DNA from: an uncultured delta proteobacterium | GTDB lineage: Bacteria; Desulfobacterota; Binatia; UBA9968 | Direction of reading: 5' to 3' | Length of the DNA stretch: 64,000 nucleotides | Assembly (NCBI GenBank): GCA_963840855.1 | Contig: CAWJBB010000039.1 | Location: 60,517 to 124,516, forward strand | Part shown: positions 9,586-62,694 of the stretch, one piece after another | Layout: each line of letters starts with the position of its first letter | Numbering within the stretch: the first letter of the stretch is position 1 | Notes under the pieces: generated by a model | Told to the model about the DNA's origin: nothing | What the model saw: only the letters and a program-made list of their open reading frames with translations | Database searches by the model: none | Made by a program: the position numbers and the translations under genes

Positions 9586-9664
9586 GGTTCAAGGTTCAAA
9601 GTTTCGGATAAACCCCAAATCCTTATGTTAAAGTCCTTGAACGCTGAACCTTGAACTTTGAACC
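9586..9664. repeat. GTTCAA/TTGAAC heptamer inverted-arm element
   Basis: GGTTCAAGGTTCAAAGTTTCGGA ... TTGAACGCTGAACCTTGAACTTTGAACC. Confidence 0.85.
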
Positions 9665-10468
9665 CCGTCTCGCCCGGCGCATGGCGCGTTTCAGCCGGGC
9701 GACGAATTTGCCAGCGCGCGCCGCCTTTTGTTTTCTGTCTTTCGCGGTTTCGATAATTTGGACCAGCGCGCTACCGACCACCGCCGCGTCGGCAAAGCCG
9801 CCGATCCACGCCGCCTGCTCGGGTGTCGAAATGCCGAATCCCACGCCCACCGGCAACGACGCAGCGCCGCGCACCCGCGTCACCTGGGCGCGCAGTTGCC
9901 TGTCAAATGACCGGCGCGCGCCGGTGACGCCCGTCACCGAGACGTAATAAATAAAGCCGCTTCCCTGCCGGGCCGCCTGACGGATGCGATCGGGGCCACT
10001 TGTGGGCGACAATAGAAAAATCACGTCGAGTCCCAGAGCGTCGCTCCATCGCTTCAACTCGCCGCTTTCCTCCGGCGGCAAATCGACGCAGAGCACGCCA
10101 TCGGTCCCCGCTGCCGCGGCCTGGCGGCAGAAACTTTCCAGCCCGTAATGAAAAAATGGATTGAAGTAACCGAACAAAATGACCGGCAGCTCGGAGTGGC
10201 GGCGAAACCGGCGGACCAGAGAGAGAATTTTCGACATAGACGGATTATTCTTCAAGGCGCGCTCCGACGAGCGTTGAATCGTCGGTCCGTCCGCCGTCGG
10301 GTCGGAGAACGGAATGCCTAACTCGATCAAGTCGGCGCCGCCCCTTTCCACGGCGTAGAGTATTTCGAGCGTTGTGGCGAGATCCGGGTCTCCCGCGGTC
10401 ACGAACGGAATCAGCGCGGCCTCGCCCCGCCGTTTCAATTCGGCGAATTTTTTTTCTATGCGTCCCAC
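9623..10468 (-). CDS. trpA: Tryptophan synthase alpha chain
   Basis: ELGIPFSDPTADGPTIQ, YYVSVTGVTG, VGFGIS, VVGSA. Confidence 0.96.
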   Translation of the reverse strand: MGRIEKKFAELKRRGEAALIPFVTAGDPDLATTLEILYAVERGGADLIELGIPFSDPTADGPTIQRSSERALKNNPSMSKILSLVRRFRRHSELPVILFGYFNPFFHYGLESFCRQAAAAGTDGVLCVDLPPEESGELKRWSDALGLDVIFLLSPTSGPDRIRQAARQGSGFIYYVSVTGVTGARRSFDRQLRAQVTRVRGAASLPVGVGFGISTPEQAAWIGGFADAAVVGSALVQIIETAKDRKQKAARAGKFVARLKRAMRRARRGSKFKVQRSRTLT

Positions 10469-10473
10469 AGTCC

Positions 10474-10500
10474 GTTAAAGTTCAAGTTCAAAGTTCAAGG
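10474..10500. repeat. Single-arm GTTCAA tandem array
   Basis: GTTAAAGTTCAAGTTCAAAGTTCAAGG between trpB and trpA; contains the trpB stop. Confidence 0.75.
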
Positions 10501-11690
10501 TGAAGAAAAATCCTCACTCCGAGGTAATCCCCCACGGTCATCATGTCTTTGTCGCCGCGGCCGGAGAGATTAACGATAACGGTTTGCTGCTTGGGCAAGC
10601 GCGGCGCAAGACGCATTACCACAGCGATGGCGTGGGCGCTCTCCAACGCCGGAATAATACCTTCGATTTCTGCGAGGTATTTGAGCGCGGCGATGGCCTC
10701 GCCGTCGGTGGCGGCGGCGAACTGCACCCGGCCCCGGTCGCGCAGGTAACTCAGCTCGGGACCGACGCCAGGATAGTCCAGTCCCGCCGCGATGGAATGG
10801 GTCTCGCGAATCTGGCCGGAGCTGTCCTGCAGTACGTAGCTCTTGCTGCCATGCAGCACGCCGATCTCGCCGCCGAGAACCGACGCCGCATGCTCGCCGG
10901 TGCCGAGCCCCCGTCCCGCCGCCTCGACGCCGAGCATGCTTACATTGCGGTCTTTGACGAAGGGATAAAAAAGCCCTATCGAGTTGCTGCCGCCACCGAC
11001 GCAGGCCACCAGATAGTCGGGCAAACGCCCCTCGGCTTTAAGAATCTGACGGCGCGCTTCCCGGCCGATCACCGATTGGAAGTCGCGCACCATCATGGGG
11101 TAGGGGTGCGGCCCCGCCACCGATCCGATCAGGTAGTAAGTCGTGCGCACGTAGGTCACCCAGTCTCTAAGCGCTTCGTTCATGGCGTCCTTTAATGTCT
11201 CGCTACCGGACTCCACGACCAGCACTTTCGCGCCCAAAAGCTTCATGCGAAACACATTGAGCGATTGGCGTCGGACATCTTCCCGCCCCATGAAGACTTC
11301 GCACTTGAGACCGAAGCGTGCCGCCACCGTCGCCGTGGCCACGCCATGCTGGCCGGCGCCAGTCTCGGCGATGATCCTCTTCTTGCCCATGCGACGCGCC
11401 AGCAGAATCTGGCCGATGGTGTTGTTGATCTTGTGCGCCCCGGTGTGGCAGAGGTCTTCGCGTTTGAGATATATCTTCGCCCCGCCCAGTTCGCGGGTTA
11501 GCCGCTCGGCGAAATAGAGCGGGGTTTCCCGACCCGCGTACTCGCGGAGATAGCGCCGAAACTCTTTTTGAAATGCGCGGTCTCGGCGCGCCGCCGCATA
11601 GGCCCGCTCCAATTCCATGATTGCGGGCATGAGCGTCTCTGCCACATAGCGGCCGCCGAAGGGGCCGAAGTGGCCGCGCCGGTCAGGCAC
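10488..11690 (-). CDS. trpB: Tryptophan synthase beta chain
   Basis: [38 protein letters not shown]; start taken as GTG 11690 overlapping the trpF stop (ATG 11726 is the alternative). Confidence 0.96.
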
Positions 11691-12309
11691 TTTTGGCAGC
11701 AACAATGAACTCTTTGAGTTTGCCATGATCCTTGATACCCGGACGCGCCTCCACACCGCTGCAAACATCGACTCCGTACGGCCGCACGCGGCGAATCGCT
11801 GCCGCGACATTGGCGACGGTGAGCCCGCCCGACAAAATCAGTTTCTCTGTTTTCACTCCTTCGAGCCACTCCCAGGGAAACCCGGCGCCTGACCCGCCGT
11901 AGCCCGCGGTCCAGGAGTCCAGCAAATAGAATTCCGCGGGAAACTTGTCCATACCGAGCAGCGATTGCTTATCCTTCAAGCGGAATGCTTTAATCACTTT
12001 CATGTCCCAACCGCGGCAGTAATCTGCGCTCTCCTCGCCGTGAAACTGCAAGCCGGAATATGCCTGCCGGCCATTCGCCAACCTTCCGCTGGCGATGACT
12101 TCACGTACCCTCGATTGAGACTCATTGACAAATAGCGCGACGTTGAAAGACGTTTCCGGCAATCCAGCGAGAACCGCCGCCGCCGCCTGCGGCGTTACAC
12201 AACGCGGGCTCGGCTGATAAAAGTTAAATCCCAAGAGATCCGCGCCAAACTCAAGCGCCTTTTCCGCGTCAATCAAGCTGGTAATGCCGCACACTTTGAC
12301 TGTAACCAT
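11683..12309 (-). CDS. trpF: Phosphoribosylanthranilate isomerase
   Basis: [31 protein letters not shown]. Confidence 0.95.
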
Positions 12310-12310
12310 G

Positions 12311-12387
12311 TCGTGCTCGTTGCTCGTGCTCGTGCTCGAAAATCGCGCCTAGCCTTAATCACGATCACAGTCACGAACCCGGTCACG
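12311..12387. repeat. Hexamer-period inverted-arm element (GTGCTC / CACGAN)
   Basis: TCGTGCTCGTTGCTCGTGCTCGTGCTCG ... TCACGATCACAGTCACGAACCCGGTCACG between trpC and trpF. Confidence 0.65.
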
Positions 12388-13159
12388 TTAAAAGTTCCCT
12401 CAGCTTCTGTCCGGGCGCCGGCGCGCGCATCAGCGATTCACCGATCAAAAAAACATGGATGCCCCACCCTTCGATCCGCCGAATCTGCTCGATGCTGTCT
12501 ATGCCGCTTTCGCAAATCGCCGGCATGCCCGGCGGAACGAGGGGCGCCAGCTTTTGCGTGGTCGCGAGATCGACGTTGAAGGTCTTCAGATCGCGGTTGT
12601 TAATCCCCACCAGTTGCGCGCCCGCTTCGAGGGCCGCGCCCAGCTCTTCTTCGCTGTGCACCTCGACGATAGAATCGAGTCCCAGGGCCGTGGCCTGCTC
12701 GCGGAGATCGCGCAGCGAATCGCGGTCGAGCAGCGCCGCGATAAACAATACGGCGTCGGCGCCATAACTTTTTGCTTCGGTCAACTGATAAGGATCGAGC
12801 ATGAAATCCTTGCGCAAAAGCGGCACGGCGACGGCGGCGTGAATTCGTTCCAGATCGTCGAGACTGCCTTGAAAGTGCCGTTCCTCCGTGAGCACCGAAA
12901 TCGCGCTGGCGCCATGCGTCGCGTACTCGCGGGCGATGGCGACGGCGTCGAAATCCTCTCGAATCAGCCCCTTGGACGGCGAAGCCCGTTTGACCTCGGC
13001 GATGATGCGGCGGGTGTTGCCAGCGAGACTCCGGGCGAAACCGCGGGTCACGACATTGAACAATGGACGGTCGCGCAGCGCCGTCAATGGCCGGTCGCGC
13101 CGCCGCCGGTCTACCTCTTCGCGCGCATGCCCGGCGATGGTGGCGAGAAATCCAGCCAT
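12383..13159 (-). CDS. trpC: Indole-3-glycerol phosphate synthase
   Basis: IAEVKRASPSKG, ISVLTE, LRKDF, GINNRDL, ESGI, LIGESLM. Confidence 0.96.
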   Translation of the reverse strand: MAGFLATIAGHAREEVDRRRRDRPLTALRDRPLFNVVTRGFARSLAGNTRRIIAEVKRASPSKGLIREDFDAVAIAREYATHGASAISVLTEERHFQGSLDDLERIHAAVAVPLLRKDFMLDPYQLTEAKSYGADAVLFIAALLDRDSLRDLREQATALGLDSIVEVHSEEELGAALEAGAQLVGINNRDLKTFNVDLATTQKLAPLVPPGMPAICESGIDSIEQIRRIEGWGIHVFLIGESLMRAPAPGQKLRELLT

Positions 13160-13163
13160 GAGT

Positions 13164-14180
13164 CTACGCGGCGTTAGTCATCTCGACCAACCGGGCAAGC
13201 TTTTCGCTGGCCTTCCCGGAGTCGATGGATTCGGCGGCCAACCGCATGCCGTCCTGAATAGTGGCCGCGCTGCCGCCGACGTAAAGCGCCGCGCCGCCGT
13301 TGAGCAGAACCACGTCTCGCGCCGGTCCCTTATCGCCTTGCAAAACCCCGCGCACGATGGCGGCGCTTTGCTCCGCGTTGCCGCCGTGCAGGTCCTCCAT
13401 GCGGCAGCATTTCAGACCAAACTGTTCGGGCTCGACGATATATTCCTTGACCTGGCCACCGCGCAGCTCGGCGACCTTGGTCGGACCGCAAAGTGAAATT
13501 TCATCCAAGCCTTCCATGCCGTGGACGACCATGGCACAGACGCTGCCGAGATTTTTCAGCACATGGGCGATCATGCCCACAAGATCGCCGCTGTAGAGGC
13601 CGATTAGCTGGTGCGTCGCCATTGCTGGATTGGTCAACGGACCCAAGAGATTAAAAACTGTGCGAATGCCGATATCGCGGCGCGGCTGGACGGCGTATTT
13701 CATCGCTTCGTGAAGTAGCGGCGCGAAGAGAAAGCCGATGCCGATCTTGGCGATGCACTCCTCCACGCGTTCCTTGGGCGCGTCGACTTTTACGCCCAGA
13801 GCCCCGAGCACATCGGCGCTACCCGACTGGCTGGAGACCGAACGATTGCCATGCTTGGCGACGTTAATGCCCGCGCCGGCAACGACGAACGCCGCGGTGG
13901 TGGAAATATTGAAAGTCCCTTTCTGATCGCCTCCTGTGCCACAGGTATCGATCACCGTCTTCGACCCAACCTGGACACGGTGGGCCTTCTCACGCATAAC
14001 CCGCGCCGCGCCGGTAACTTCTTCGACGGACTCGCCTTTCATGCGCAGGGCGGTCAGAAAAGACGCCACTTGCAGCGGCGTCGCCTCTCCGGTCATGATC
14101 TGATTCATGGCTTCGATCATCTCCGGCTCGGAAAGACTGACCCGGTTGACGAGCTTGTCAATGGCGTCGCGGATACTCAT
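13164..14180 (-). CDS. trpD: Anthranilate phosphoribosyltransferase
   Basis: DTCGTGGD, FNIST, AKHGNRSVSSQSGSAD, FNLLGPLTNP. Confidence 0.96.
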   Translation of the reverse strand: MSIRDAIDKLVNRVSLSEPEMIEAMNQIMTGEATPLQVASFLTALRMKGESVEEVTGAARVMREKAHRVQVGSKTVIDTCGTGGDQKGTFNISTTAAFVVAGAGINVAKHGNRSVSSQSGSADVLGALGVKVDAPKERVEECIAKIGIGFLFAPLLHEAMKYAVQPRRDIGIRTVFNLLGPLTNPAMATHQLIGLYSGDLVGMIAHVLKNLGSVCAMVVHGMEGLDEISLCGPTKVAELRGGQVKEYIVEPEQFGLKCCRMEDLHGGNAEQSAAIVRGVLQGDKGPARDVVLLNGGAALYVGGSAATIQDGMRLAAESIDSGKASEKLARLVEMTNAA

Positions 14181-14218
14181 GATTCTTATCTATTTTTGAA
14201 TGCTATTTTCTTTTAATG

Positions 14219-14926
14219 CTATTTTCTAGTAGCGAACGCTTTTCCTAGATCCTCTTTGCTCTTCAACATTGCTACGGTTTTATCCGCTTCTTCGCGGGAC
14301 CCAAAGCGTCCGATGCGCACGCGGTACCAGACCTTTCCTTGGACGTTCGCTTCCGTGACAAACGCGTTGTATCCTTTATTTTTCAGACGATCAACCAAGT
14401 CATTGGCGGATTTCGCATCGGGGTAGGAGTTCGCTTGCACGCTCCAGCCCTTGCCGTTCGTTTTCGCTTCGGCGCTCTCCGTTGCCTGCGCCTTGGTTTC
14501 GGGTTCGGCGGCCGCCGGAGATTTTTCGCCGCGGTTCTCCGCGGCTTTGGCACGCGCCGTCGTTTCCTCAGGGCCCTGCGGCTTTTTCTCTTTCGTCGCG
14601 GCCCTGGCGGTTTTCTCGGCTTCTTCCGTCTTGGTCTCCGCCGCCTGCTTAGACTCGGGCGTTTTCGTCAGCGTATTGTAAAACGTAAGGTCGTCTTTGC
14701 TCTTCGCCCCCTCCGTTCCGGCAGCACCCCGCGGCGCTGGTTTTACCGGCACTTTAACGAGGGGCTCTTCGGGGCGCACAATTTTGCGCGCTTCGATTTC
14801 TTTGCCGACAAACATACCCAGTCCAAAAATGATAACAGAGGCCAGCGTGAAAGCGCCGCCCAATAACGCCATCTGCCATCTGGTGAAATAATATCGTTTA
14901 TCTTTTTCTCTGCGGTTTTCAGCCAT
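14219..14926 (-). CDS. SPOR-domain membrane protein (FtsN/DedD-like)
   Basis: One TM helix, LTFYNTL motif, low-complexity linker, WSVQANSY...WYRVRIGRF; downstream of argS as is common. Confidence 0.85.
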   Translation of the reverse strand: MAENRREKDKRYYFTRWQMALLGGAFTLASVIIFGLGMFVGKEIEARKIVRPEEPLVKVPVKPAPRGAAGTEGAKSKDDLTFYNTLTKTPESKQAAETKTEEAEKTARAATKEKKPQGPEETTARAKAAENRGEKSPAAAEPETKAQATESAEAKTNGKGWSVQANSYPDAKSANDLVDRLKNKGYNAFVTEANVQGKVWYRVRIGRFGSREEADKTVAMLKSKEDLGKAFATRK

Positions 14927-14953
14927 AGCTTCCCCTTCCCGTGAGCAGCCTCC

Positions 14954-16651
14954 TCAGCACGCGGCGCCATCCAGGCCCGACAAAGAAGCCATACGCAGCG
15001 GCGCGTCCACGCCGAGGATCTCGAGCCCGCGCCGGATGGTTTTCTGCGCGTTCATGACCAGCAGCAGGCGCGCCTGGCTCAATGCACGGTCGTCGGTTAT
15101 TACCCGGTGGCGGTTATAATAACGATGAAACTCGCCGGCGAGCTCGAGCAAATAAAAAATCATGCGGTGCGGTTCGAGCTCGCGCACTGATTCTTCCAGG
15201 ACCTCATTGAACTGAATCATCCGGCGAATCAGTTCCAATTCTTCCGCCAACTCGAGCCGTTCTAAAGAAACCCCGCCGCTGCCGGCTACGTTCAAAGCCA
15301 TGCCGTTCCTTCGCGCCTGCTCGAGGATACTCGCTACCCGCGCATGGGCGTATTGCACGTAAAACACCGGATTATCGCTCGACTGCCGCTTGGCGAGTTC
15401 GAGATCGAAGTCGAGATGACTATCGGACTTGCGCATGAGAAAAAAGAAACGCGCGGCGTCGCGTCCCACTTCTTGCAACACTTCGTCCAGCGCGACGTAT
15501 CCGCCGGTGCGCTTTCCCATGCGCACCGGCTCCCCGCCGCGCGTGAGTTGCACCATCTGCACGAGCACCACGCGCAGGGCGTCTGCGTCATAACCCAAGC
15601 CGCGCATGGCCGCCTTGAGCCGCGCCACGTAGCCGTGGTGATCGGCGCCCCAGACGTTAATCAGCCGCCCGAACTTCCGCTCGAATTTATTGCGGTGATA
15701 GGCGATATCCGAGGCAAAATAGGTCAATTCACCGTCGCTTTTGATCACCGTCCGATCCTTGTCGTCACCGAACTGCGTCGAGCGAAACCACTCCGCGCCG
15801 TCTTGCGCGTACAGCAAACCGCGCCGGCGCAAGAGATCCATCGATTGGACGACTTCGCTGCGCTCGCGCAGGGCCTTTTCACTAAAGAAAGAGTCGAATT
15901 CAATGCCAAAGTCGCTAAGCTGCCCGCGGATCGTCTCGAGCAACCTCTCGCCGCCGTACTGGGTGAAATACTTTACCGCCGCCGTCTTGTCCCCGTGGAG
16001 AAATTTATCGCCGGCTTGATCCTTAACCGACCGGGCGACGTCGATGACGTAATCGCCGGGATAGCCCTCGGCGGGAAACTCCACCGTCTCGCCGAAAATC
16101 TCGCGGTAGCGCGCGTCAATCGAAAGCCCGAGGTTCTCCATCTGTTTGCCGGCGTCGTTGACGTAGTATTCTTTTTGCACTTCGAAACCGGTGGCTTGGT
16201 GCAAGCGCGCCAAAACATCGCCGATCACCGCCACTCGCCCGTGGCCGACGTGTAGCGGACCGGTGGGATTGACGCTGGCAAACTCCACCTGGACCTTTTC
16301 TCCTTTGCCGAGATCGAAGCGCGCCTCTTTGTCCGCTGCCAACTCGCGTAAGCGCTCGTAATAAAACTTGGGCGCGAAGGCAAAATTCAAAAAACCAGGG
16401 CCGGCGATCTCGCGGCGCGCGATGATCCCGCCCGGATCTTCAAAATTCTTGAGGATCAACTCGGCAATGGCGCGCGGCGCTTTTTTCGCGCTCTTCGCCC
16501 ACAACATGGCGACGTTCGTCGTCAGATCGCCGAACTCGCGTTGCTTGGGCGGCTCAAGAAGCAAAGGGGGGAGCTCGTTAGAAAACAGCTCTCCCCCCTT
16601 CGCCGTTTTATCAATGGCCTGGGTTAATAGTTCCCTAAGCTGACTGCGCAT
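14954..16651 (-). CDS. argS: Arginine--tRNA ligase
   Basis: AGPGFLNF, EFASVNPTGPLHVGHGR (HIGH), WGADHHGY, MGKRTG, YVQYAHAR. Confidence 0.97.
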   Translation of the reverse strand: MRSQLRELLTQAIDKTAKGGELFSNELPPLLLEPPKQREFGDLTTNVAMLWAKSAKKAPRAIAELILKNFEDPGGIIARREIAGPGFLNFAFAPKFYYERLRELAADKEARFDLGKGEKVQVEFASVNPTGPLHVGHGRVAVIGDVLARLHQATGFEVQKEYYVNDAGKQMENLGLSIDARYREIFGETVEFPAEGYPGDYVIDVARSVKDQAGDKFLHGDKTAAVKYFTQYGGERLLETIRGQLSDFGIEFDSFFSEKALRERSEVVQSMDLLRRRGLLYAQDGAEWFRSTQFGDDKDRTVIKSDGELTYFASDIAYHRNKFERKFGRLINVWGADHHGYVARLKAAMRGLGYDADALRVVLVQMVQLTRGGEPVRMGKRTGGYVALDEVLQEVGRDAARFFFLMRKSDSHLDFDLELAKRQSSDNPVFYVQYAHARVASILEQARRNGMALNVAGSGGVSLERLELAEELELIRRMIQFNEVLEESVRELEPHRMIFYLLELAGEFHRYYNRHRVITDDRALSQARLLLVMNAQKTIRRGLEILGVDAPLRMASLSGLDGAAC

Positions 16652-16734
16652 TGCGGCCTCGCATCAACCTGCTCTGCACCCTGCGAAATAAAGCGCTGCT
16701 TTGTCGGGGGGATAAAGACGCGCTAACCCGTTTA

Positions 16735-16764
16735 TTTATAACGACTTTCCCCAGGAAATGTCAA
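16735..16764 (-). promoter_or_regulatory. Candidate sigma70 promoter for argS
   Basis: TTGACA-N18-TATAAA on the minus strand about 85 bp upstream of the argS start. Confidence 0.5.
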
Positions 16765-16847
16765 TATTAACCGGCCCCCGGCATGGGCAGCGTCATGCCA
16801 GCCACTTTCTGCGTTTGCAGCAAAATTGCGTCTGACGATCCCGTTGA

Positions 16848-17348: not shown

Positions 17349-17465
17349 GGAGACCTCCCGACGGAAAGCAGCCCGCGAGCGAAAATGCTCCGGTCCGCGC
17401 GCATTACACTTTTTCGTAGCATTTCGTACCAGGCATGCGTATCGATTATAGGACTCTAAATTTAT

Positions 17466-17819: not shown

Positions 17820-17962
17820 CCGTGGGCATTCGCGATTGGCGACGTTGTGCTGAACTTAGAGAAGGGCCACCGCCAAGTCAAGGCAAGGTTGCCGCTGCGT
17901 TGAGTTGGCCGGAAGCCTGTGATATTTCCCGTCGAGTCGATTCATTGGAGTAAAACCGTTGC

Positions 17963-20004: not shown

Positions 20005-20090
20005 GTTCAAAGTTCAATGTTCAAAAGTTGGGGTTTCGGTTGTGCGGTTGAATATCCGAGCGAAACACCCTGAACGTTGAACCTTGAACC
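20005..20090. repeat. GTTCAA/TTGAAC heptamer inverted-arm element
   Basis: GTTCAAAGTTCAATGTTCAAAAGTT ... CTGAACGTTGAACCTTGAACC. Confidence 0.85.
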
Positions 20091-22070: not shown

Positions 22071-22325
22071 TTATCTCATTCTTCCCATGGAGTACTGAAG
22101 CTTTTTCAGTTCCCCTTCCAAAAACATGTCCTTGATGACGTGGCGGTCCAAATGCGCCTCCATCTGTTGTGCCGGATAAATTTTCGTGCCGCAGCGGTGG
22201 CAAAGAACCGCGTGGAAGATGTTGCTGTCGAAGTTTATCGCCGTTTCGCTGGTTGCGCTGGTTGCGCTGGTTTCGCTGGTTGCGCTGGTTGCGCTGGTTG
22301 CGTTGGTTGCGCTTGACGTTTCCAT
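22071..22325 (-). CDS. 84-aa protein with Ser/Ala/Thr repeat and C2H2-type zinc finger motif
   Basis: AGGAG RBS before ATG 22325; CHRCGTKIYPAQQMEAHLDRH = C-x2-C-x12-H-x3-H. Confidence 0.7.
   Translation of the reverse strand: METSSATNATSATSATSETSATSATSETAINFDSNIFHAVLCHRCGTKIYPAQQMEAHLDRHVIKDMFLEGELKKLQYSMGRMR
22243..22314. repeat. In-frame 9-bp tandem repeat, 8 units
   Basis: GTT(G/T)CGCTG x8 with a 27-bp superperiod; encodes SAT/NAT/SET triplets. Confidence 0.95.
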
Positions 22326-24807: not shown

Positions 24808-24879
24808 TTGAACGGCTTGAACGTTTTGAACAATTTGAACCCCTGAGGACTCTGAACCTTGAACTTTGAACCTTGAACG
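24808..24879. repeat. TTGAAC arrays, 9-bp period then 7-bp period (single orientation)
   Basis: TTGAACGGC TTGAACGTT TTGAACAAT TTGAACCCC ... CTGAACC TTGAACT TTGAACC TTGAACG. Confidence 0.85.
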
Positions 24880-27078: not shown

Positions 27079-28065
27079 ATGTACACTCGATGTTTCAGTG
27101 CAATTCTCCTGGCGCTGCTCGCGTTGGCATCATCGCTCCCCGCCCAAGAGACACACCTGGTCGCCTACGCCGGGTTCGCGGGTTTCCAAGCGCCGGTCTG
27201 GGCTCCAAAAGATCTGGGCCTTTTCACGAAGTACGGGTTTAACGGCGACGTCGTGTTGGTGCCGGGCTCAGTGCGCCAAATCCAGGCCATCGTGGGAGGC
27301 AGTATTCATTTTGCCCAAGCCGATGCCGCCACCGCCGTCAATGCGATCAATCAGGGACTCGATCTCGTCATGATCTCCGGCACGTTGAACTCTTTTCCTT
27401 ATAGCTTTGTCACACAGAAAGAAATCCGCAAACCCGAAGATTTGACCGGCAAAAAGATCGGCGTCCTCGCCGTCGGCGGCGCCACCGAAACGGCGACGTT
27501 TCTCGCCCTCAGGGCTTGGAACATTTCGCGCCAATCGGTAACGATCTTCCCCGCTGGAGATTCCGCGGCGCGCATCATCGCCCTTTCAGCTAAGGCCATC
27601 GACGGAACCATGCTGTCTTATCCTGACATCAACGAGGCCGTCCGCCTGGGCATGCATGAGTTGGTGAAAATGAGCGATGTCAAAGGATCATCCTTTCCGA
27701 TGAACGTGATGGTCGCGCGCCGCTCCTTCGTCGAAAAAAATCGCGACATCGTGAAACGTTTCCAGCAGGCCTACGCCGAGGGCACCTACCAATTCGTAAC
27801 CAGCAGAGAAAAGGGCCTGGCGATTTTAGCCAAGCGGCTCAGGTTTAAAAACCCCAAGGGCGTTGAAGAGACCTATGACTATTTCGCCAAGAGCTTTTCT
27901 TTCCCGACGCGGGTTTCCCACGAAGGCCTGCGCAACACCTTGGAAATTATCGCGCAGCGCAACCCCTCGGTCAAAGTCGATATGAACGTGAGCCGCTATC
28001 TCGACGAAGGCATCCTGGACGAATTGGAACGGGAAGGATTTTTTAAGAAACTGGCGGGCAAGTAG
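27079..28065 (+). CDS. ABC substrate-binding protein, NMT1/SsuA-like
   Basis: Signal peptide; GLFTKYG, EDLTGKKIGV, DELEREGFF. Confidence 0.85.
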   Translation: MYTRCFSAILLALLALASSLPAQETHLVAYAGFAGFQAPVWAPKDLGLFTKYGFNGDVVLVPGSVRQIQAIVGGSIHFAQADAATAVNAINQGLDLVMISGTLNSFPYSFVTQKEIRKPEDLTGKKIGVLAVGGATETATFLALRAWNISRQSVTIFPAGDSAARIIALSAKAIDGTMLSYPDINEAVRLGMHELVKMSDVKGSSFPMNVMVARRSFVEKNRDIVKRFQQAYAEGTYQFVTSREKGLAILAKRLRFKNPKGVEETYDYFAKSFSFPTRVSHEGLRNTLEIIAQRNPSVKVDMNVSRYLDEGILDELEREGFFKKLAGK

Positions 28066-28089
28066 GGGCGACCGGCCGGTCGCCCCTGC
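28062..28089. repeat. GTAG-type REP palindrome
   Basis: GTAGGGGCGACCGGCCGGTCGCCCCTGC; includes the stop codon of the upstream gene. Confidence 0.8.
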
Positions 28090-28112
28090 TCATTTCTTAC
28101 GGAGGCAATCCC

Positions 28113-28157
28113 ATAGCAAAATTCGTCATCGACGCAGACGGGCATATAATGGAAGAC
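28113..28157 (+). pseudogene. 5' stub of an amidohydrolase gene
   Basis: GGAGG RBS then ATA-AKFVIDADGHIMED (D-x-D-x-H metal motif); ends at the junction with the opposite-strand relic. Confidence 0.65.
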
Positions 28158-28658
28158 CGACCCGTCGATATTCCCTGACTTCAAGGCCGCAAGTCTTTCC
28201 GCTTCGTTGCCGATTTGTAAGATCGAAACATCCCTGGGATCGACACCAACCCTTTGTAGCAGCGCCCGGGTGCCAAACTCCGAGGCCGCTGCGAACCGGC
28301 TGATGCCAAAGCGTTTACCTTTGAGATCGCCGACTCGCTTCAGCTCGGGCCGCGTCACCAGCTGATAGCCCATCCGGTCATCCGACATGGCAATGTAGAT
28401 GATGTCGGCGCCGCGCAGATTGGCGGCCACGCCGGGAGCGCCGGTAAGTTGAGCGATCTCGAGATCTCCAGAAAGCAGCGCCTGCATGACCGGGCCGCCG
28501 CCCGGCACATAGACAACCATCGACGAAAGGCCGTACTTGGTGTAAAGGCCGCGTTTCTCCGCCAGCGATACGAACAGGGCATGCGGGTTAACTGAGCTGT
28601 AGCTAACGCGGATGGGTTCCTGAGCGAACGCGGATGTACGCTGGCAAGAAAGAAGCAT
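28152..28658 (-). pseudogene. 3'-truncated NMT1/SsuA-like substrate-binding protein
   Basis: IRVSYSS, GLYTKYGL, DLKGKRFGISRF, RLAALKSGNIDGSVF, then nonsense; about half the normal length. Confidence 0.75.
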
Positions 28659-28853: not shown

Positions 28854-28902
28854 TTTTATAGTCCTTTTATTCTTGCTGAGAGCTGGCTGTCAACGGATCG
28901 AT

Positions 28903-29010
28903 TGGAGTGATGGAGTATTGGAGTGTTGGGTAAACTGAGTGGCGGCTACGAATAGCTAATCTCGAACCTCGGGTTGATCCGAACCCAGTACTCCACCACT
29001 CCATTACTCC
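28903..29010. repeat. Octamer-period inverted-arm element (TGGAGTNN / NNACTCCA)
   Basis: TGGAGTGA TGGAGTAT TGGAGTGT TGGG ... CCCAGTACTCCACCACTCCATTACTCC. Confidence 0.85.
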
Positions 29011-29864
29011 TTCTGTGCCCCGACATACGCTGCTAGCGCTTCGCGCCAATGACGCATAGGACGAAATTTTAAGGATTCAGACAAGAGGCAGCGTAAGGGC
29101 GTGTAGCGCGGGCGCGCCGCCGCGCGATTCATGTCCCGTTCGTGCGTAATTTCAATCAATGCGTCGATGCGAGCGCGGGTTAGCCCCGCCAATCGTCCCG
29201 CTTCCAGCGCGAACTCGTAGTAGCTGCAAACGCCATCGTTGACCACATGGTACGTGCCGTAGCGCCGCCGATTGAGGATTTCCAGACAGCGCTCAATCAA
29301 ATCCTCTACATAGGTCGTGCTCGACCAAATGTCGTCGATGGCGCGCACTGGTTTGCCGGTTCTGAGATCGTCGTGCACGGTGCAAAGAAAACTCTTTTTA
29401 CCGCTGCCGTAAACCCAAGAAGTGCGGATGATATAACTCCGCGCGCAAGCATTGCGGACGCCGTCTTCGCCGGCGAGTTTGGTTCGCCCGTAGTGATTCA
29501 CCGGCCGCGCCTCGTCGTCTATCGTGTAAGGCGAACGGCCAACCGGTTCCCCTTCGAAGGCATACTGTGTGCTAAAGTGAATGATTTCAGCGCCGGTGCG
29601 ATTCGCCGCTTCGGCAAAAAACCGCGGCCCGTCCACGTTTACCGCCTGAGCCTTGTCCGGCTTTTCGTCCGCCTCATCGACTTGTATGACGGCGCCGTTG
29701 ATCATCAGATCGGGACGGAAGTCCGCCACGCGTCGGTGCACCGATTCGCCGTCGGCAATATCGAGTTCTCGGTGTGTTAATGCCAATACCTCGTGATCGC
29801 GCGCGAACCTGCGCGCGAAATGGCTCGCGACCAGTCCGGCGCCACCGCTGATGAGAACCTTCAT
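29004..29864 (-). CDS. Second RfbD-like SDR sugar-nucleotide reductase
   Basis: GGAGLVA, HFSTQYAF, YGRTK, RTSWVY, RPRYTPL; more divergent than the 3822 copy. Confidence 0.8.
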   Translation of the reverse strand: MKVLISGGAGLVASHFARRFARDHEVLALTHRELDIADGESVHRRVADFRPDLMINGAVIQVDEADEKPDKAQAVNVDGPRFFAEAANRTGAEIIHFSTQYAFEGEPVGRSPYTIDDEARPVNHYGRTKLAGEDGVRNACARSYIIRTSWVYGSGKKSFLCTVHDDLRTGKPVRAIDDIWSSTTYVEDLIERCLEILNRRRYGTYHVVNDGVCSYYEFALEAGRLAGLTRARIDALIEITHERDMNRAAARPRYTPLRCLLSESLKFRPMRHWREALAAYVGAQKE

Positions 29865-30535: not shown

Positions 30536-30635
30536 GGTTCAAAGTTCAAGGTTCAATGTTCAACGTGTTCCGATCTTATATAAACCGCATATCCATGATC
30601 TCTAACTTTGAACCTTGAACATTAAACGTTGAACC
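30536..30635. repeat. GTTCAA/TTGAAC heptamer inverted-arm element
   Basis: GGTTCAAAGTTCAAGGTTCAATGTTCAACG ... AACTTTGAACCTTGAACATTAAACGTTGAACC. Confidence 0.88.
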
Positions 30636-33561: not shown

Positions 33562-33696
33562 GGTTTAAAGTTCAAGGTTCAAAGTTCAAAGTTTCCGATA
33601 CGAAGGAGTCCGTCTGTAAAACCGCGAGAGGCCGAATTGGGGCATCGCATCGTGCGAATCCGGAACCTTGAACTTTGAACCTTGAACTTTGAACGG
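33562..33696. repeat. GTTCAA/TTGAAC heptamer inverted-arm element
   Basis: GTTTAAAGTTCAAGGTTCAAAGTTCAAAGTTTCCGA ... TCCGGAACCTTGAACTTTGAACCTTGAACTTTGAACGG between convergent genes. Confidence 0.9.
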
Positions 33697-38454: not shown

Positions 38455-38527
38455 GTTCGATCCGTTCAAATAGTTCAAATCGTTCCAAACGTTTTGAACG
38501 GCTCGAACTACTTGAACGTTTTGAACC
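38455..38527. repeat. GTTCAA/TTGAAC inverted-arm element, 9-bp period
   Basis: GTTCGATCC GTTCAAATA GTTCAAATC GTTCCAAAC GTT TTGAACGGC TCGAACTAC TTGAACGTT TTGAACC. Confidence 0.85.
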
Positions 38528-39410: not shown

Positions 39411-39511
39411 AGGCGGGAGGCGGAAGGCGTGAGCCGCGAGCCGAACAATTTTCTATTCCGTACCGATACGCCTGCTATTTTCTCACGCCTCGCGCCTCTA
39501 GCCTCATGCCT
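39411..39511. repeat. Heptamer-period inverted-arm element (AGGCGNN / NNCGCCT)
   Basis: AGGCGGG AGGCGGA AGGCGTG AGCCGCG AGCCG ... CTCACGC CTCGCGC CTCTAGC CTCATGC CT. Confidence 0.75.
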
Positions 39512-40750: not shown

Positions 40751-40786
40751 GTTCAAAAGTTCAATGGTCAACGTTCAAAGGTTCGA
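40751..40786. repeat. Degenerate single-arm GTTCAA array
   Basis: GTTCAAAAGTTCAATGGTCAACGTTCAAAGGTTCGA between hisI and hisG. Confidence 0.7.
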
Positions 40787-44689: not shown

Positions 44690-44749
44690 AAAATAATAGA
44701 AATAATTTTCAATGTCAACGCGACCCCTGATTTGCCCATGGCAAATCAG
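44690..44749 (-). promoter_or_regulatory. Candidate sigma70 promoter with upstream palindrome
   Basis: TTGACA (44718-44713)-N17-TATTTT; CTGATTTGCC-CAT-GGCAAATCAG at 44727-44749. Confidence 0.55.
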
Positions 44750-44828
44750 TTCAAAGTTCCACGTTCAATGTTCAAAGTTCGGCGGGTCCAACTCTGGACG
44801 TTGAACTTTGAACGTTGAACCTTGAACC
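44749..44828. repeat. GTTCAA/TTGAAC heptamer inverted-arm element
   Basis: GTTCAAAGTTCCACGTTCAATGTTCAAAGTTCGG ... CTGGACGTTGAACTTTGAACGTTGAACCTTGAACC. Confidence 0.88.
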
Positions 44829-55805: not shown

Positions 55806-55818
55806 GCGAAAGATACTT

Positions 55819-55920
55819 AACCGCAAAGAACGCAAAGCGGAGAAGCCTTACCACGAAGGTCGCGAAGTTCAGAAAAAAGGATATCCGAACCCTCCGTGTT
55901 ATTCGCGCCTTTGTGGTGAA
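55819..55920. repeat. Nonamer-period inverted-arm element
   Basis: AACCGCAAAGAACGCAAAG..ACCACGAAGGTCGCGAAGTTC ... TCCGAACCCTCCGTG..TTCGCGCCTTTGTGGTG. Confidence 0.6.
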
Positions 55921-55938
55921 AAAACTTATTTACGACCT

Positions 55939-56709: not shown

Positions 56710-56712
56710 CTC

Positions 56713-58974: not shown

Positions 58975-58976
58975 TC

Positions 58977-59035
58977 GTAGGGGCAGACCCGTGTGTCTGC
59001 CCTCCGGACGGGCAATCACGCAGGATTGCCCCTAC
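58977..59035. repeat. GTAG-type REP dimer (two inverted REP hairpins)
   Basis: GTAGGGGCAGACCCGTGTGTCTGCCCT ... GGGCAATCACGCAGGATTGCCCCTAC. Confidence 0.85.
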
Positions 59036-59092
59036 AAACTCCCCACGCAAGGAACAACATGAATCGCTCGAAGACGCATAACAGCAGCATGC

Positions 59093-59857
59093 GTGGTAAT
59101 AGCCGGATTGGTAATGTTACCCCGGCTTGCGTGGGCGTTCTGCCACGAGCTCGAGGTCGTCAACCGGCCGAGCTTGCGCTATGTCGCGAGCGCCTCGCGC
59201 CCAGTCGAAATCGAGTGGTTCGGCCACGCCACCTTTCAGATTACCTCGTCGAAAGGCACGCGCATCCTCGCCGATCCCCACGGTCGCAGTGATTTGCGCT
59301 GGCCCACGCTCGACCAGCATATCGTCACCACCAGCCATCCGCATGGCGCCCACAGCCATATCTGGATGGCCAAGGGCGCTCCGGTTGTTCTTGAAGGGCT
59401 GACCCCGGGCGGAGAGAACTGGCAGAAGATTCATACGACGATCCGCGATGTCGCGGTATATTCCGTTCCCGCTTATCACGATAAAAGCCAGGGACTACAA
59501 CGCGGTAAGAACGCGATCTTCGTCTTTCGGGTCGATGATATCTGCATTGCCCACCTGGGGGATTTGGGACATCATTTGACGCCGCCCCAGCTTAAACTAC
59601 TGGGCAAGATCGACATTCTTTTGGTGCCCGTGGCCGGCGGCATGTTTACGGTGACACCGACCGAGGCTATCGAAGTGACGAAACAAGTCAATCCACGCAT
59701 TGCCATTCCCGAACATTATTGGTGGGAAGGTGGCGCCGATCGATTCGCCGCGGGTTTCGCGAAAGTGAAGCGCCTCAATGGCGCAGTATTGAGAATCACC
59801 AAGCAGGAGCTGCCGCCGCCCACCGAAATCATCGTGATGACCTGGGAGCGGCACTAA
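59093..59857 (+). CDS. Exported MBL-fold metallo-hydrolase
   Basis: WFGHATF, DP, SHPHGAHS, AYHD, HLGDLGH, IPEHY; true start probably ATG 59059 with a +1 frameshift. Confidence 0.85.
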   Translation: MVIAGLVMLPRLAWAFCHELEVVNRPSLRYVASASRPVEIEWFGHATFQITSSKGTRILADPHGRSDLRWPTLDQHIVTTSHPHGAHSHIWMAKGAPVVLEGLTPGGENWQKIHTTIRDVAVYSVPAYHDKSQGLQRGKNAIFVFRVDDICIAHLGDLGHHLTPPQLKLLGKIDILLVPVAGGMFTVTPTEAIEVTKQVNPRIAIPEHYWWEGGADRFAAGFAKVKRLNGAVLRITKQELPPPTEIIVMTWERH

Positions 59858-59881
59858 AATATCTACCGGTGCTGGGATTGA

Positions 59882-59991
59882 CTCGCGCCAAGGCGCAAAG
59901 CACGCGAAGTTCGGAAGGGAAAGATTGATAATCTTACAAAGATCTTCACCATTTTTCTCCGACCTTTGCGGCCTTGGCGTCTTTGCGCGAG
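59882..59991. repeat. Nonamer-like inverted-arm element
   Basis: CTCGCGCCAAGGCGCAAAGCACGCGAAGTTCGGA ... TCCGACCTTTGCGGCCTTGGCGTCTTTGCGCGAG. Confidence 0.8.
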
Positions 59992-60098
59992 ATATCCCTA
60001 GTTTTGGTTGCGGCTTCGCCGCGCTAGGTCTTTGTGGTGGTTACCTCTTCACAGTCATACCGAAAGAACAGAAATAATGGACGAAGGGAGTTCGGTCT

Positions 60099-61067
60099 AT
60101 GAGAGCCGTACGCGTGCACAATTTTGGCGGACCGGAAGTTCTCAAAAACGAAGAGATTGCGGTCCCTGAACCCAAGGCCGGTGAAGCGCGCGTCAAGATC
60201 GAAGCCATCGGCCTCAATTACATTGACATCTACCAGCGCACCGGTCTCTACCCGCTGCCGCTGCCATTCACCCTCGGGAGGGAAGCAGCCGGTCTGGTCG
60301 ACGCCACCGGCCCGAATGTCACGGAGGTCAAAGTCGGCGACCGCGTTGCCTATGCAATGGAGCCGGGGGCCTACGCGGAATATGCCGTTGTGCCGGCGTG
60401 GAAGCTCGTCCCCGTGCCTGCCAATGTCGACACCCTCTCCGCCGCCGCGACCATGCTTCAGGGGATGACTGCCCACTACCTGGCTCACAGCACCTACCCG
60501 CTTAACCAAGGCGATATCGCGCTCGTCCACGCGGCCGCCGGCGGAGTCGGCCTGCTCTTGATTCAGATCGCCAAACGTCGAGGCGCCAGAGTCTTGGGCA
60601 CGGTCTCAACAGAGGAAAAGGCGCGTCTAGCCAGGGACGCTGGCGCGGACGAAGTGATTCTTTATAGCCGCGTGGATTTCGGCACAGAGGTAAAAAGGCT
60701 GACCAGCGGCGCGGGAGTCCATGTGGTCTACGATTCCGTCGGCGCGACTACTTTTGAAAAGAGCCTCGATTGTCTGCGTCCGCGCGGTTATCTGGTTCTC
60801 TTTGGACAGGCGAGCGGTCCGGTCCCGCCGTTTGATCTCGGCAAGCTGGCAGCGAAGGGATCGCTCTTCGTCACCCGGCCAACCTTGGTCCATTATATGA
60901 GCGACCGGCGCGAGCTGCTCGAACGCGCCGGCGATCTCTTCAACTGGATAGCTTCGGGGAAACTGAAGCTGCGCATCGAAAAAACTTTCCCCCTGGCCGA
61001 AGCCGCCGAAGCGCACCGGCAGCTGGAAGGCAGAAGGACGACGGGAAAAGTGATTTTATTGCCGTGA
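60099..61067 (+). CDS. qor: NADPH:quinone oxidoreductase (zeta-crystallin-like)
   Basis: [44 protein letters not shown]. Confidence 0.92.
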
Positions 61068-61089
61068 AAACAATCAGCGCCCGCCCGCC

Positions 61090-61632
61090 TCATGGCTGAG
61101 AACGCGTGAAACGCTGATCGGAGAGCAGTTCCTGGAGTTTTTTTCGCTGCTCCGCCGTCAACAAGGCTTTGCCTTTCTCGATGGCGCGGATGCGCGCGAT
61201 GCGCAGGTCGGCGCGCAGCCGTTCGATGTCGCGAATCTTCGCCTCAACTTTCGCCAGATCGGCGCTTTGCGCCTGCAAAAGATTGTTGAGATCGATCTCG
61301 GCGACGCGAATATCGGCCTCGTTACGGATCGTTTCTTTCTCAAAGTCGCTGCGCAGTTGTTCCAGTTTTTTGACTTGATCGTCGGAGAGCCCGAGTTTCT
61401 CGCGGTTGCGCAATAATAGCGAGATCACCGGTTGCTGCTCGTGCGCCGTGGTGCCGCCGAAATATTCCCACCAGCGTCCCAGCCACCCGCGAAAATCCTT
61501 GCCCAGTTCCTCGAAGCTCTGGCTGCTATCGTCGCGCACAGCCGTTTTCTTATCTTCCGCAGCGCGCGCTGTACCGGAAAGAGATAGAAGCAGCAAAGAC
61601 AGCAAAATCGCTGAACCCGCGTAGCTCTTCAT
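61090..61632 (-). CDS. Spy/CpxP-family periplasmic protein
   Basis: Signal peptide; LGLSDDQ and LTAEQ (LTxxQ) motifs. Confidence 0.82.
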   Translation of the reverse strand: MKSYAGSAILLSLLLLSLSGTARAAEDKKTAVRDDSSQSFEELGKDFRGWLGRWWEYFGGTTAHEQQPVISLLLRNREKLGLSDDQVKKLEQLRSDFEKETIRNEADIRVAEIDLNNLLQAQSADLAKVEAKIRDIERLRADLRIARIRAIEKGKALLTAEQRKKLQELLSDQRFTRSQP

Positions 61633-61754
61633 GGCGATCTCCATCAATATAAATCTAATGTAGAAATTAGAACTCCCGAATGGGCGGTTGTCAATTGGCC
61701 ACGCTGCCGGCAGTGAGGCGAGAGAATTTGCGCCTCCCCAAGCGACCCGTTACT

Positions 61755-62546
61755 TCATCCGATGATCAACGTCAGGCATTTGGCGCTACCGCCCGCTTTG
61801 AGAAACTCATCGAGGGGGGTTTCGAAAACGTTGAAGCCGAGCTCGTCGAGTTTTCCGCGAACCACGGGGCAGCCCGTGTTCATGATGACGTTTTTTCCGC
61901 CGACAACGGCGTTGCAAGCGAAGCGCTCCGCTTCCTGGGCCGGTACGGGGATGAGAACCGGTATTTGATTCTCAAGCACCGCTTGCGCGTAAGCGTCGAA
62001 GGCGGCGGGATAATACAGCGCCGCCCTTTCCGAAAGCGGACAGAAGCAGGTGTCGAGGTGGTAGAACCAGCCGCTCGTCAACTCGAGCGAGAGTATTTCC
62101 TGATCGATAATCTCAGCCACTCTCTGGTGCGCGACCATGTCGGAGCGAATGTGGTAACCCGCGAACCATGACTCGCCGCAGCGCAAGAGGTCTCCTTCGC
62201 CCTCAAAGTAGTAGTCCTGCGGCAGGTGAATGACCTCGTATCCCCGCTCGCGGAACCATGCAGCAAAATGCGCTGCCTCGCCTCTTCGGACTTCGTGGCG
62301 GAAGTTGCTCACGATAAATTTATTTTGCCAAACCACTCCGGCGTTGGCAGTAAACACCATGTCCGGGAGCCCCGGCTTGGCGTCGATCAAGTGAATTTCC
62401 GCAGGCAATTTCTCGGCCAGCACGCGGTGCAATTCGCTCCACTGCCGCATGGCCAGCCCCGCGTCGCTCTGGCGGCTTCGCTTCATCCAGGGATTGATCT
62501 CGTACTCGATGCCGTAATAGGACGGCGGGCACATCAACAGCTGCAT
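61755..62546 (-). CDS. Amidinotransferase-fold enzyme, ArgZ/AgrE arginine dihydrolase domain-like
   Basis: LMCPP...INPWM, LPDMVFTANAG, FEGEGD, FYHLDTCFCPL, FACNAV, FLKAGGSAKCLTL. Confidence 0.88.
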   Translation of the reverse strand: MQLLMCPPSYYGIEYEINPWMKRSRQSDAGLAMRQWSELHRVLAEKLPAEIHLIDAKPGLPDMVFTANAGVVWQNKFIVSNFRHEVRRGEAAHFAAWFRERGYEVIHLPQDYYFEGEGDLLRCGESWFAGYHIRSDMVAHQRVAEIIDQEILSLELTSGWFYHLDTCFCPLSERAALYYPAAFDAYAQAVLENQIPVLIPVPAQEAERFACNAVVGGKNVIMNTGCPVVRGKLDELGFNVFETPLDEFLKAGGSAKCLTLIIG

Positions 62547-62603
62547 ATTTACCGCTGGGTCGAAAGGATTTTGACCACCCTGAAGAAACGCACTGTGTGC
62601 GCA

Positions 62604-62694
62604 GTTCAAGGTTCAAGTTCAAGGTTCAAAGTTAGGGATCGAGCTACTACGGTTCAGTAGAGAACGGATTGCGTTGAACATTGAACATTGAACC
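62604..62694. repeat. GTTCAA/TTGAAC heptamer inverted-arm element
   Basis: GTTCAAGGTTCAAGTTCAAGGTTCAAAGTT ... GTTGAACATTGAACATTGAACC. Confidence 0.88.

Follow-up and report, generated by a model that had tools for sequence, protein, structure and literature searches.

Dispersed GTTCAA hairpin elements in a Binatia genome as probable gene-less relatives of heptamer-armed PF05635 cassettes

A 64,000-nucleotide stretch of the genome of an uncultured delta proteobacterium of the class Binatia (contig CAWJBB010000039.1, positions 60,517 to 124,516), hereafter the window, carries ten dispersed loci built from short tandem units of GTTCAA or of its reverse complement, TTGAAC. These loci are probably (we put the probability at about 0.58) gene-less miniature relatives of cassettes that contain a PF05635 gene: dispersed hairpin elements whose arms are converging GTTCAAR heptamers and which are tolerated as stems. 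GTTCAAR would thus be one of many unit families of a single architecture, in which paired inverted arrays of 6–9-mers surround a variable middle and whose full form encloses a gene of the PF05635/TIGR02436 family (S23p, Avd-like), as in the intervening sequences of 23S rRNA. The array family itself has been catalogued before; what is new, and offered as a lead, is the link between heptamer-armed elements and PF05635/TIGR02436 genes.

Results

Converging arrays in the window

A first-pass annotation of the window had described ten GTTCAA/TTGAAC loci, and an array finder (hexamer with at most one mismatch, spacing of 6–10, at least two exact units) returned exactly those ten, where Tandem Repeats Finder and our own chaining also place the repeats. 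In this DNA of 57% G+C, the bare hexamer occurs 83 times on both strands against 32.1 ± 5.5 expected, and GTTCAANGTTCAA dimers number 25 over the two strands, where shuffling gives 0.01 on average and none of 100 shuffles reached 25. Seven of the ten loci are two-armed and, as annotated, the GTTCAA array comes before the TTGAAC array in all seven. Since this arrangement is its own reverse complement, the polarity cannot be a strand bias: it is a property of the element, whose units converge. The other three loci (10474–10498, 24808–24878 and 40751–40786) have a single orientation, and no partner arm was found for them within 250 nt. The hexamer is constant and the linker base varies, mostly between A and G, in agreement with the annotation, which had also given periods of 7 or 9 bp; both occur at 24808, but the range measured over the window arrays is 6–9 bp. 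GTTCRA resembles the T-loop consensus of tRNA. Three extra loci (12311–12400, 28902–29013 and 39411–39510) have the same design with different units.

The arrays are neither CRISPR loci nor classical repetitive extragenic palindromic (REP) sequences nor an insertion sequence (IS), as had been proposed from the sequence alone. CRISPR loci have direct repeats of 23–50 bp and unique spacers of about that size, whereas the units here are 6–9 bp long and contiguous, and the arms are inverted. The hallmark of REP sequences is an imperfect palindrome with a GTAG/CTAC tetranucleotide; the arms of the window elements lack this tetranucleotide and consist of GTTCAAN tandems instead.

PF05635 genes between inverted heptamer arms

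Genome contigs were scanned for three consecutive units, which gave at least 123 stretches; dropping three duplicates from the same contigs (L036, L037 and L078) left 120 loci, analysed together with the window. The sample is motif-selected and arbitrary, and counts drawn from it are lower bounds. Comparison by blastn and tblastn showed no fetched locus to stem from the window's own genome or a near relative of it. All open reading frames (ORFs) and six-frame fragments of the window and the loci were searched, and plasmids were searched by tblastn (30 records, 12 regions fetched). The PF05635/TIGR02436 genes examined number 19, six in the motif-selected genome loci and 13 in the 12 plasmid regions. 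Every one of them has at least one adjacent array, and 15 have inverted tandem arms of 7–8-mers on both sides. A flank inverted-repeat score of 12 or more was obtained for 15 of the 18 scorable genes (L035b was left out because of Ns) against six of 107 control ORFs from the same loci (Mann–Whitney p = 5e-6); the six high-scoring controls are two transposase genes, three ORFs bracketed by heptamer arrays and one other.

A contig of a Desulfobacterales metagenome-assembled genome (MAG), L035, in which the density of GTTCAAR is like that of the window, holds two PF05635 genes, each between inverted tandem heptamers, with the pair (GTTTTCG)n/(CGAAAAC)n in one case and the pair (GTTTTCT)n/(AGAAAAC)n in the other. 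A Cyclobacteriaceae locus (L005) has GTTYAAR arms, a cyanobacterial locus (L039) has arms of other heptamers, and 11 of the 13 plasmid-region genes have inverted tandem arms of 7–8-mers, each with its own unit. GTTYAAR arms recur around the gene in Riemerella (L132). The annotation had named four-helix-bundle genes as candidates for what lies between such arms in other genomes, and PF05635 genes are indeed found there, GTTYAAR arms included. In Azospirillum lipoferum, the gene and its heptamer arms lie inside the 23S rRNA gene (L130; Rfam LSU match at 2786–5984), which makes this a genuine 23S rRNA intervening sequence with heptamer arms. The closest protein pairs have common units: L126/L128 (80% identity), L035a/b (66%) and L005/L132 (49%). 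The PF05635 protein matches PDB entry 2GSC, which has five chains, with an E-value of 3.6e-23, and gives sub-threshold matches to Avd models.

Filled and empty sites

Related plasmids differ in whether a junction holds a gene-bearing cassette. The nrdB–nrdA spacer measures 17 nt in a Calothrix plasmid and is replaced by a cassette in Nostoc edaphicum, with flanks 84.9% identical. The cas6–cas4 spacer contains a cassette in Anabaena sp. 90 and none in a Dolichospermum plasmid, with flanks 98.7% identical; at the same junction, Pseudanabaena galeata has a cassette and Pseudanabaena sp. ABRG5-3 no more than an (AATTACG) array of four units. Over short time scales, therefore, cassettes are acquired, lost or replaced, and junctions are reused.

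Four-helix-bundle cassettes are present in CRISPR-cas operons of cyanobacterial plasmids (L125, L134 and L135), at cas6/cas4 of type I-D in two genera and at cas10/cmr3 of type III-B. The Dolichospermum cas6–cas4 spacer (L136, around 830–1080) is occupied by another insert, a small inverted repeat about 200 nt long whose ends are GTAGGTTGGGTTG...CAACCCAACCTAC.

Polarity and occurrence in other genomes

Among the matches listed, arrays occur in Acidobacteriota, Binatia, Thermodesulfobacteriota/Desulfobacterales, Geobacterales (including the isolate Geomonas propionica), Methylomirabilota, Verrucomicrobiota, Latescibacterota, Bacteroidota, cyanobacteria and others. The polarity bias extends well past the window. 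Over the window and the 120 loci, at least 37 pairs with a gap of up to 600 nt, from 29 sources, run GTTCAA then TTGAAC, and one (L030) is reversed (binomial p = 2.8e-10 among the matches listed). A relaxed search of the remaining arrays listed added about 15 degenerate partners on the expected side, and gave opposite-side partners, among the matches listed, at L008, L030, L046, L047 and L048. The annotation's statement that the opposite arrangement is never seen thus applies to the window; elsewhere the arrangement is rare. Four units is the commonest arm size (41 of 74 arms), arrays range from 2 to 28 units, and spacers measure 2–502 nt with a median of 37, all among the window and loci listed. 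Many matches, above all in Bacteroidota, are long single arrays.

Very long one-orientation GTTCAAN arrays of 16–28 units occur in Bacteroidota and Verrucomicrobiota MAGs (L063 9986–10270, L047 9987–10097 and L097 266–383), in contrast to the arms of 3–5 units elsewhere. At L079 2317–2779, four GTTCAAA arrays succeed one another at intervals of about 100 bp, a similar segment of about 75 nt comes after each, and one TTGAAC array closes the series, which looks like a tandem multiplication of a half-element.

Kinship among copies

The annotation had noted that spacers differ between copies. Their lengths run from 6 to 78 nt in the seven two-armed window copies with the arm boundaries of this analysis, but one sub-family keeps a conserved core. 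The spacer core AGTTAGGGAT...GCGGTTCATAAAAGAYCGGAATACGTTGAAC is common to six copies (L073, L111, L113, L120 and the window elements at 30537, reversed, and 62604), with a mean column identity of 77%; they come from Binatia (three MAGs), Thermodesulfobacteriota (one MAG) and the window (two copies). By blastn, the 30537 element matches L073 at 84.5% identity over 84 nt, and the 62604 element matches it at 80% over 86 nt. The copies are thus related beyond mere similarity of design. Linker strings are identical in both arms in L035, L024 and the window element at 33563, which fits copies that were born with identical arms and decayed afterwards.

Terminal inverted repeats are present in the window copies and in L035, where a 556-bp element has arms that extend to form a terminal inverted repeat 60 nt long or longer. 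In L035, a 9.9-kb transposon was suggested by extended ends that match each other at 10001 and 19889; we rejected it because the interval carries ispH/ubiA-like and seryl-tRNA synthetase genes. Separately, the spacers of the GTTCAAR elements at 11012–11567 and 13442–13670 of L035 share an inner GC-rich hairpin motif (GGCGGGC...GCCCGCC), which suggests a nested insertion of another small repeat.

Hairpins and individual window copies

Each of the seven two-armed copies folds into one long hairpin (−28 to −62 kcal/mol, z −4.5 to −7.1), and none of 200 shuffles was as stable as any of them; the arms form a terminal inverted stem of about 25–35 bp. The element at 9587–9663 occupies the gap between trpA and folC, with a left arm at 9587–9599 plus a partial GTT, a right arm at 9637–9663 and a 37-nt spacer (−29.0 kcal/mol, z −5.9). 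The one at 20005–20089, between an amidohydrolase and a TPP-enzyme gene, has 3 + 3 units and a 45-nt spacer that is partly paired within itself (z −5.0). The two members of the conserved-core sub-family are located at 30537–30634 (4 + 4 units, 44-nt spacer, z −4.9; reversed) and 62604–62693 (4 + 3 units, 44-nt spacer, z −4.5; AGTTAGGGAT ... GTTGAAC). Between convergent genes, the element at 33563–33694 has 4 + 4 units whose linkers match as A, G, A, a spacer of 78 nt and arms of 45 nt that are 84% complementary (z −7.1). The element at 38455–38526 has a 9-bp period (GTTCGATCC, GTTCAAATA and similar units) and a 6-nt spacer (z −5.5), and that at 44749–44827 has 4 + 4 units and a 25-nt spacer (z −6.4).

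The one-orientation loci comprise a four-unit array at 10474–10498 (spacing 6, 6, 7) that fills the trpB–trpA junction, a five-unit array at 40751–40786 (spacing 8, 7, 7, 8) that fills the hisI–hisG junction, and two TTGAAC arrays of the same orientation at 24808–24878, four units of period 9 and then four of period 7, with no GTTCAA arm. Two of the three loci built from other units fold well: 28902–29013, with 8-bp units (TGGAGTNN)n and their reverse complement (z −6.9), and 39411–39510, with 7-bp units (AGGCNNN)n and their reverse complement between divergent genes (z −2.9, one of 200 shuffles being as good). The third, at 12311–12400 in the trpC/trpF gap, with 6-bp units (TCGTGC)n and (TCACGA-like)n, folds no better than shuffles (z −0.09), so its status as a hairpin is doubtful.

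Arm length remains at about 27–35 bp whatever the period (4 × 7, 4 × 8, 3 × 9 or 5 × 7), which fits a constraint on a double-stranded stem better than it fits protein binding to a set number of units. Covariation of linkers between the arms was considered and dropped as weak and not register-specific. An RNAalifold analysis of the six-member core sub-family was uninformative (double changes in 2 of 28 pairs, covariation term +0.45). The stems differ from intrinsic terminators, which combine a G+C-rich stem with a T-run: they are A+T-rich, and no T-run follows the right arm in six of the seven, the exception being 38455, which has TTTT 5 nt past the arm.

Gene context

The window encodes ordinary chromosomal genes by a Pfam search of 60 ORFs, among them folC-trpA-trpB-trpF-trpC-trpD, argS, lptD, hisI-hisG and a MoxR/BatA cluster. 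The ArgRS has 80–81% identity to proteins from MAGs labelled Candidatus Binatia or Deltaproteobacteria, which suggests a Binatia-like source. All ten GTTCAA loci lie between ORFs or touch only their last codons. The annotation had placed them inside operons and between convergent genes, and this is where they are, with co-directional genes on either side of nine and convergent genes around one (33563). The copies sit directly 3' of stop codons and 10–35 nt ahead of start codons. Some arrays supply the end of the neighbouring gene: the trpB ORF terminates at a TGA inside a unit of the 10474 array, and the ORF of trpA continues across the right arm of the 9587 element, whose arm and spacer add a 13-residue tail. 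It follows directly from its sequence that a (TTGAACN)3 array contains TGA in all three frames.

By our own count, the 13 elements, extra-unit loci included, fill about a quarter of the gene junctions in the window (13 of about 54). Eleven are co-directional, one is convergent and one divergent, against a baseline of roughly 43, 6 and 6 junctions; this distribution is in line with the baseline, and we dropped the idea of a preference for co-directional junctions. An Rfam search of the window gave no match at the gathering score and no rRNA, and a search of 13 element-bearing loci from the scan gave only sub-threshold matches resembling microRNA-precursor hairpins.

Relation to described repeats

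The family is not unprecedented. Geobacter bemidjiensis has 45 arrays of "heptanucleotide repeats, consensus [AACGTTG]nAAC" (Gbem_R7058–R7102; Aklujkar et al. 2010, PMC2996986, Table S6 and Figure S7), and the window family is this one, with the same pairing and, in the accessible parts of that paper, with no mechanism attached. The two agree in the unit TTGAACN (Figure S7 consensus AACGTTGAACGTTGAAC), in the period, in having 3–4 units per array and in lying mostly between co-directional genes, as nine of the ten window loci do; the arrays of G. bemidjiensis are mostly given as 3' of one gene and 5' of another. Pairs there always have the "− then +" order, GTTCAA then TTGAAC, and by our own reading Figure S7 contains at least 13 such adjacent pairs. 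The lineages differ, and the linker is mostly G/C in Geobacter and A/G in the window. The accessible parts of the paper list the arrays as "multicopy nucleotide sequences" and do not discuss their structure, polarity or mechanism. They also list a sister family, [CAATTGA]nCAA, with 56 arrays paired in the opposite order. We had considered outward-facing TTGAAC as −35 boxes behind the polarity and set this aside because that sister family, (TTGACAA)n, has the inward arrangement.

Paired sites of classes 1–3 in Geobacter metallireducens, by the accessible account, lie on opposite strands at variable distance at dozens of intergenic positions (Aklujkar et al. 2009, PMC2700814). They share with the window elements tandem 7–9-mers at each site (GTTGCTYN × 4, TCTCCGTS[Y] × 3 and MTYCTGA × 5), and some pairs lie between genes of amino-acid operons; they differ in unit sequence, and the authors guessed at sites for integration host factor (IHF) or HU, with no mechanism given in the accessible text. 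The distance between class 1 sites and the points where ISGme8 and ISGme9 insert is constant (PMC2700814). Exact motif strings otherwise returned only unrelated primers in the literature searched.

The 23S rRNA insertion of Coxiella has a 28-bp terminal stem that is cut by RNase III in vitro, and three to four tandem GACAGAT heptamers, in strain-variable number, before its S23p ORF (Warrier et al. 2016, PMC4990558). Such S23p (PF05635) ORFs are found in 23S intervening sequences of Coxiella, Leptospira and Brucella; as far as the accessible text goes, the Coxiella insertion is regarded as a horizontally acquired selfish element, and an older proposal held that the ORF served mobility (PMC4990558). 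The likeness to the window elements lies in terminal inverted arms, a stem of about 28 bp and tandem heptamers by the ORF. The window copies differ in having no PF05635 ORF and in occupying mRNA spacers, not 23S rRNA helices, and RNase III cutting is known, from the accessible part of that study, only for rRNA copies. In the literature searched, which left most subscription journals outside, nothing beyond the Coxiella heptamers ties PF05635 to flanking heptamer arrays.

Short tandemly repeated repetitive (STRR) sequences and TAACTGA repeats are likewise short tandem heptamers in intergenic DNA near start codons; the patchy cross-phylum distribution of TAACTGA in Beggiatoaceae and cyanobacteria suggests horizontal spread with no known mechanism (MacGregor 2015, PMC4679880). 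TAACTGA differs in being direct in 169 cases against one indirect, with no paired arms or associated gene reported. Miniature inverted-repeat transposable elements (MITEs) and REP doublets forming hairpins (REPINs) are also small, gene-less, intergenic, multi-copy and hairpin-folding, with inverted arms. The arms in the window, however, are tandem micro-repeats, no target duplication was seen, and the spacer ranges from 2 to 502 nt among the matches listed.

Other features of the window

Classical REP-like GTAG...CTAC hairpins occur at 58977–59035 of the window (26-nt arms, 77% complementary) and at 15450–15507 and 18019–18078 of L035 (perfect 25-nt arms); they are a separate repeat family beside the heptamer elements. 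A 9-bp tandem repeat, GTTGCGCTG (7.9 copies, 91% matches), is present at 22243–22313, in or beside an unannotated 146-aa ORF just upstream of an enoyl-CoA hydratase gene, and a 16-bp unit, TTTGAATGCTATTTTC, occurs twice at 14195–14227 between trpD and a SPOR-domain gene. The folC gene on the minus strand appears to be split into two ORFs in different frames (Mur_ligase_C at 8296–8799 and Mur_ligase_M at 8846–9592), so that 8296–9592 represents a frameshift, a pseudogene or an assembly error. Two NMT1-family ORFs overlap by about 70 nt on opposite strands (27079–28065, plus; 27996–28658, minus), and one of them may be truncated or miscalled.

Discussion

Our preferred interpretation is that copies would arise by a copy-and-insert process, which the fixed polarity, the identical arms of some copies, the spacer core that crosses phyla and the filled and empty gene-bearing sites together suggest. 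Once inserted, they would persist in operon spacers if the co-transcribed arms pair into a long stem that can be cut by RNase III or is otherwise harmless, by analogy with the cutting of rRNA insertions. Slippage may alter the unit number and drive the turnover of the unit sequence. The annotation's idea of a non-autonomous mobile element gains from the gene-bearing relatives with the same type of arm; movement itself we still infer, and a role of the PF05635 protein, self-regeneration or a protein's reading of the repeats would be inferences as well.

Several observations weigh against these elements being miniatures of PF05635 cassettes. A six-frame hidden Markov model search of the window and all long spacers found no PF05635 gene or remnant, in line with the annotation's remark that no cognate enzyme is encoded in the window, so derivation from gene-bearing copies is argued by resemblance. 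Only three GTTCAA-selected loci (L005, L052 and L079) of 120, about 80 of them long-flanked, have a PF05635 gene beside the array, and the last two are themselves exceptions: in Patescibacteria (L052), GTTCAAG × 4 stands on one side and the right arm is degenerate, and in Acidobacteriota (L079), a single TTGAAC array lies 40 nt downstream. Among plasmid regions, L128 has one arm and an adjoining ISL3 element, and L134 has direct arrays beside the gene and inverted ones further upstream. The sample of loci is biased by motif selection in the genomes and by mostly cyanobacterial matches among the plasmids. No DNA-cleaving or DNA-joining enzyme was found associated with the elements; the gene-bearing relatives have PF05635 and no recognisable transposase, and no parent IS with the same ends, a feature of MITEs, was found. 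By eye, there is no consistent target-site duplication at the seven window copies, and the nrdB–nrdA cassette junctions are ambiguous in this respect. Selection for perfect arm pairing is not evident, since linker complementarity between the arms (35 of 76 against 23.2 ± 3.8 permuted) is weak and one shift control is equally high (24 of 52). S23p is probably not made in vivo in Coxiella, according to the accessible part of PMC4990558, which counts against an essential role of the protein.

The arrays might alternatively be double-stranded DNA sites for a nucleoid or regulatory protein that reads 7-bp units, the two arms being two sites with a regulatory rather than a selfish role. A conserved hexamer with a free linker is what a protein site, rather than base pairing, would leave, and the arrays at 10474, 24808 and 40751 have a single arm. 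The omega repressor of pSM19035 reads 7-bp heptads in either orientation. Global regulators of the IHF/HU type were proposed for the G. metallireducens sites in the accessible text of PMC2700814. We nevertheless judge this improbable: in nine cases out of ten, the locus is placed between co-directional genes or at 3' ends and not at a divergent promoter, the same architecture occurs inside a 23S rRNA gene, the many unit sequences per genome would require numerous regulators, conservation of the spacer core reaches across phyla, and no candidate regulator was identified. There is likewise little probability that nothing moves and that replication slippage enlarges the arrays where they stand, starting from chance seeds in intergenic hairpins that were already there, their likeness being convergence plus a heptamer bias. 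Such growth would agree with the spread of 2 to 28 units among the matches listed, with the strain differences in Coxiella heptamer number (accessible part of PMC4990558), with the reported finding that, of the long simple repeats, those of heptanucleotides are the most abundant in most bacterial genomes (Mrazek 2007, cited in PMC4679880) and with the different heptamers of related plasmids at one cas6–cas4 junction. It does not account for one hexamer in one polarity (37 against 1 over 29 sources among the matches listed), for the matching linkers of L035, L024 and 33563, for a spacer core and extended terminal repeats common to several genomes, or for the joint inheritance of gene and arms.

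Host-serving RNA hairpins under selection, acting as operon punctuation, mRNA stabilisers or terminators with four-helix-bundle genes as unrelated passengers, seem to us quite improbable. The predicted stems are stable and their position between a stop codon and the next start codon is suitable, as it is for the mostly 3'/5' entries in the available G. bemidjiensis list. The T-run missing behind six of seven right arms, however, means that intrinsic terminators they are not; closely coupled genes, trpB–trpA for example, are split, the same junctions in related genomes have no elements, and the association of arms with PF05635 (15/18 against 6/107) is too strong for passengers. Elements of REP/REPIN type moved by a REP-associated tyrosine transposase (RAYT, a Y1 HUH transposase) encoded elsewhere in the genome would also be intergenic inverted doublets with a variable middle, as REPINs are in the accessible part of PMC3116915, and the GTAG...CTAC hairpins of the window and L035 indicate that a RAYT may exist in such genomes. 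This is nonetheless highly improbable, as the arms lack GTAG/CTAC and are tandem repeats instead of a single imperfect palindrome, no Y1 transposase domain occurs among the 60 window ORFs, and it is a PF05635 gene, not a RAYT, that such arms have been found to enclose.

A broader and tentative proposal, which we consider possible but on balance unlikely, is that heptamer arms and the PF05635 gene define a single cross-phylum selfish class comprising the rRNA insertions, STRR sequences, the Geobacter paired sites and the GTTCAAR hairpins, with the protein reading the units and aiding copying. A ring-forming protein, as the five chains of 2GSC may indicate, would read some four to five units per arm as RNA or single-stranded DNA. 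Like Avd in diversity-generating retroelements, it could assist in cassette copying or insertion, perhaps together with a polymerase or reverse transcriptase provided in trans, and the fixed polarity would reflect how the ends are made.

For annotation, the arrays matter because they add codons and stop codons to their neighbours, as in the tails of trpA and trpB. Records of tandem heptamers in the intergenic DNA of bacteria, such as STRR sequences, the "multicopy sequences" of Geobacter and TAACTGA, go back decades and give no mechanism, and the protein family PF05635/TIGR02436 is very common and of unknown function. If it holds genome-wide, the association of arms with PF05635 would place both puzzles in one testable frame, that of a promoter-less cassette which rides in the operons and rRNA genes of its host and which the double-stranded stem that it forms neutralises.

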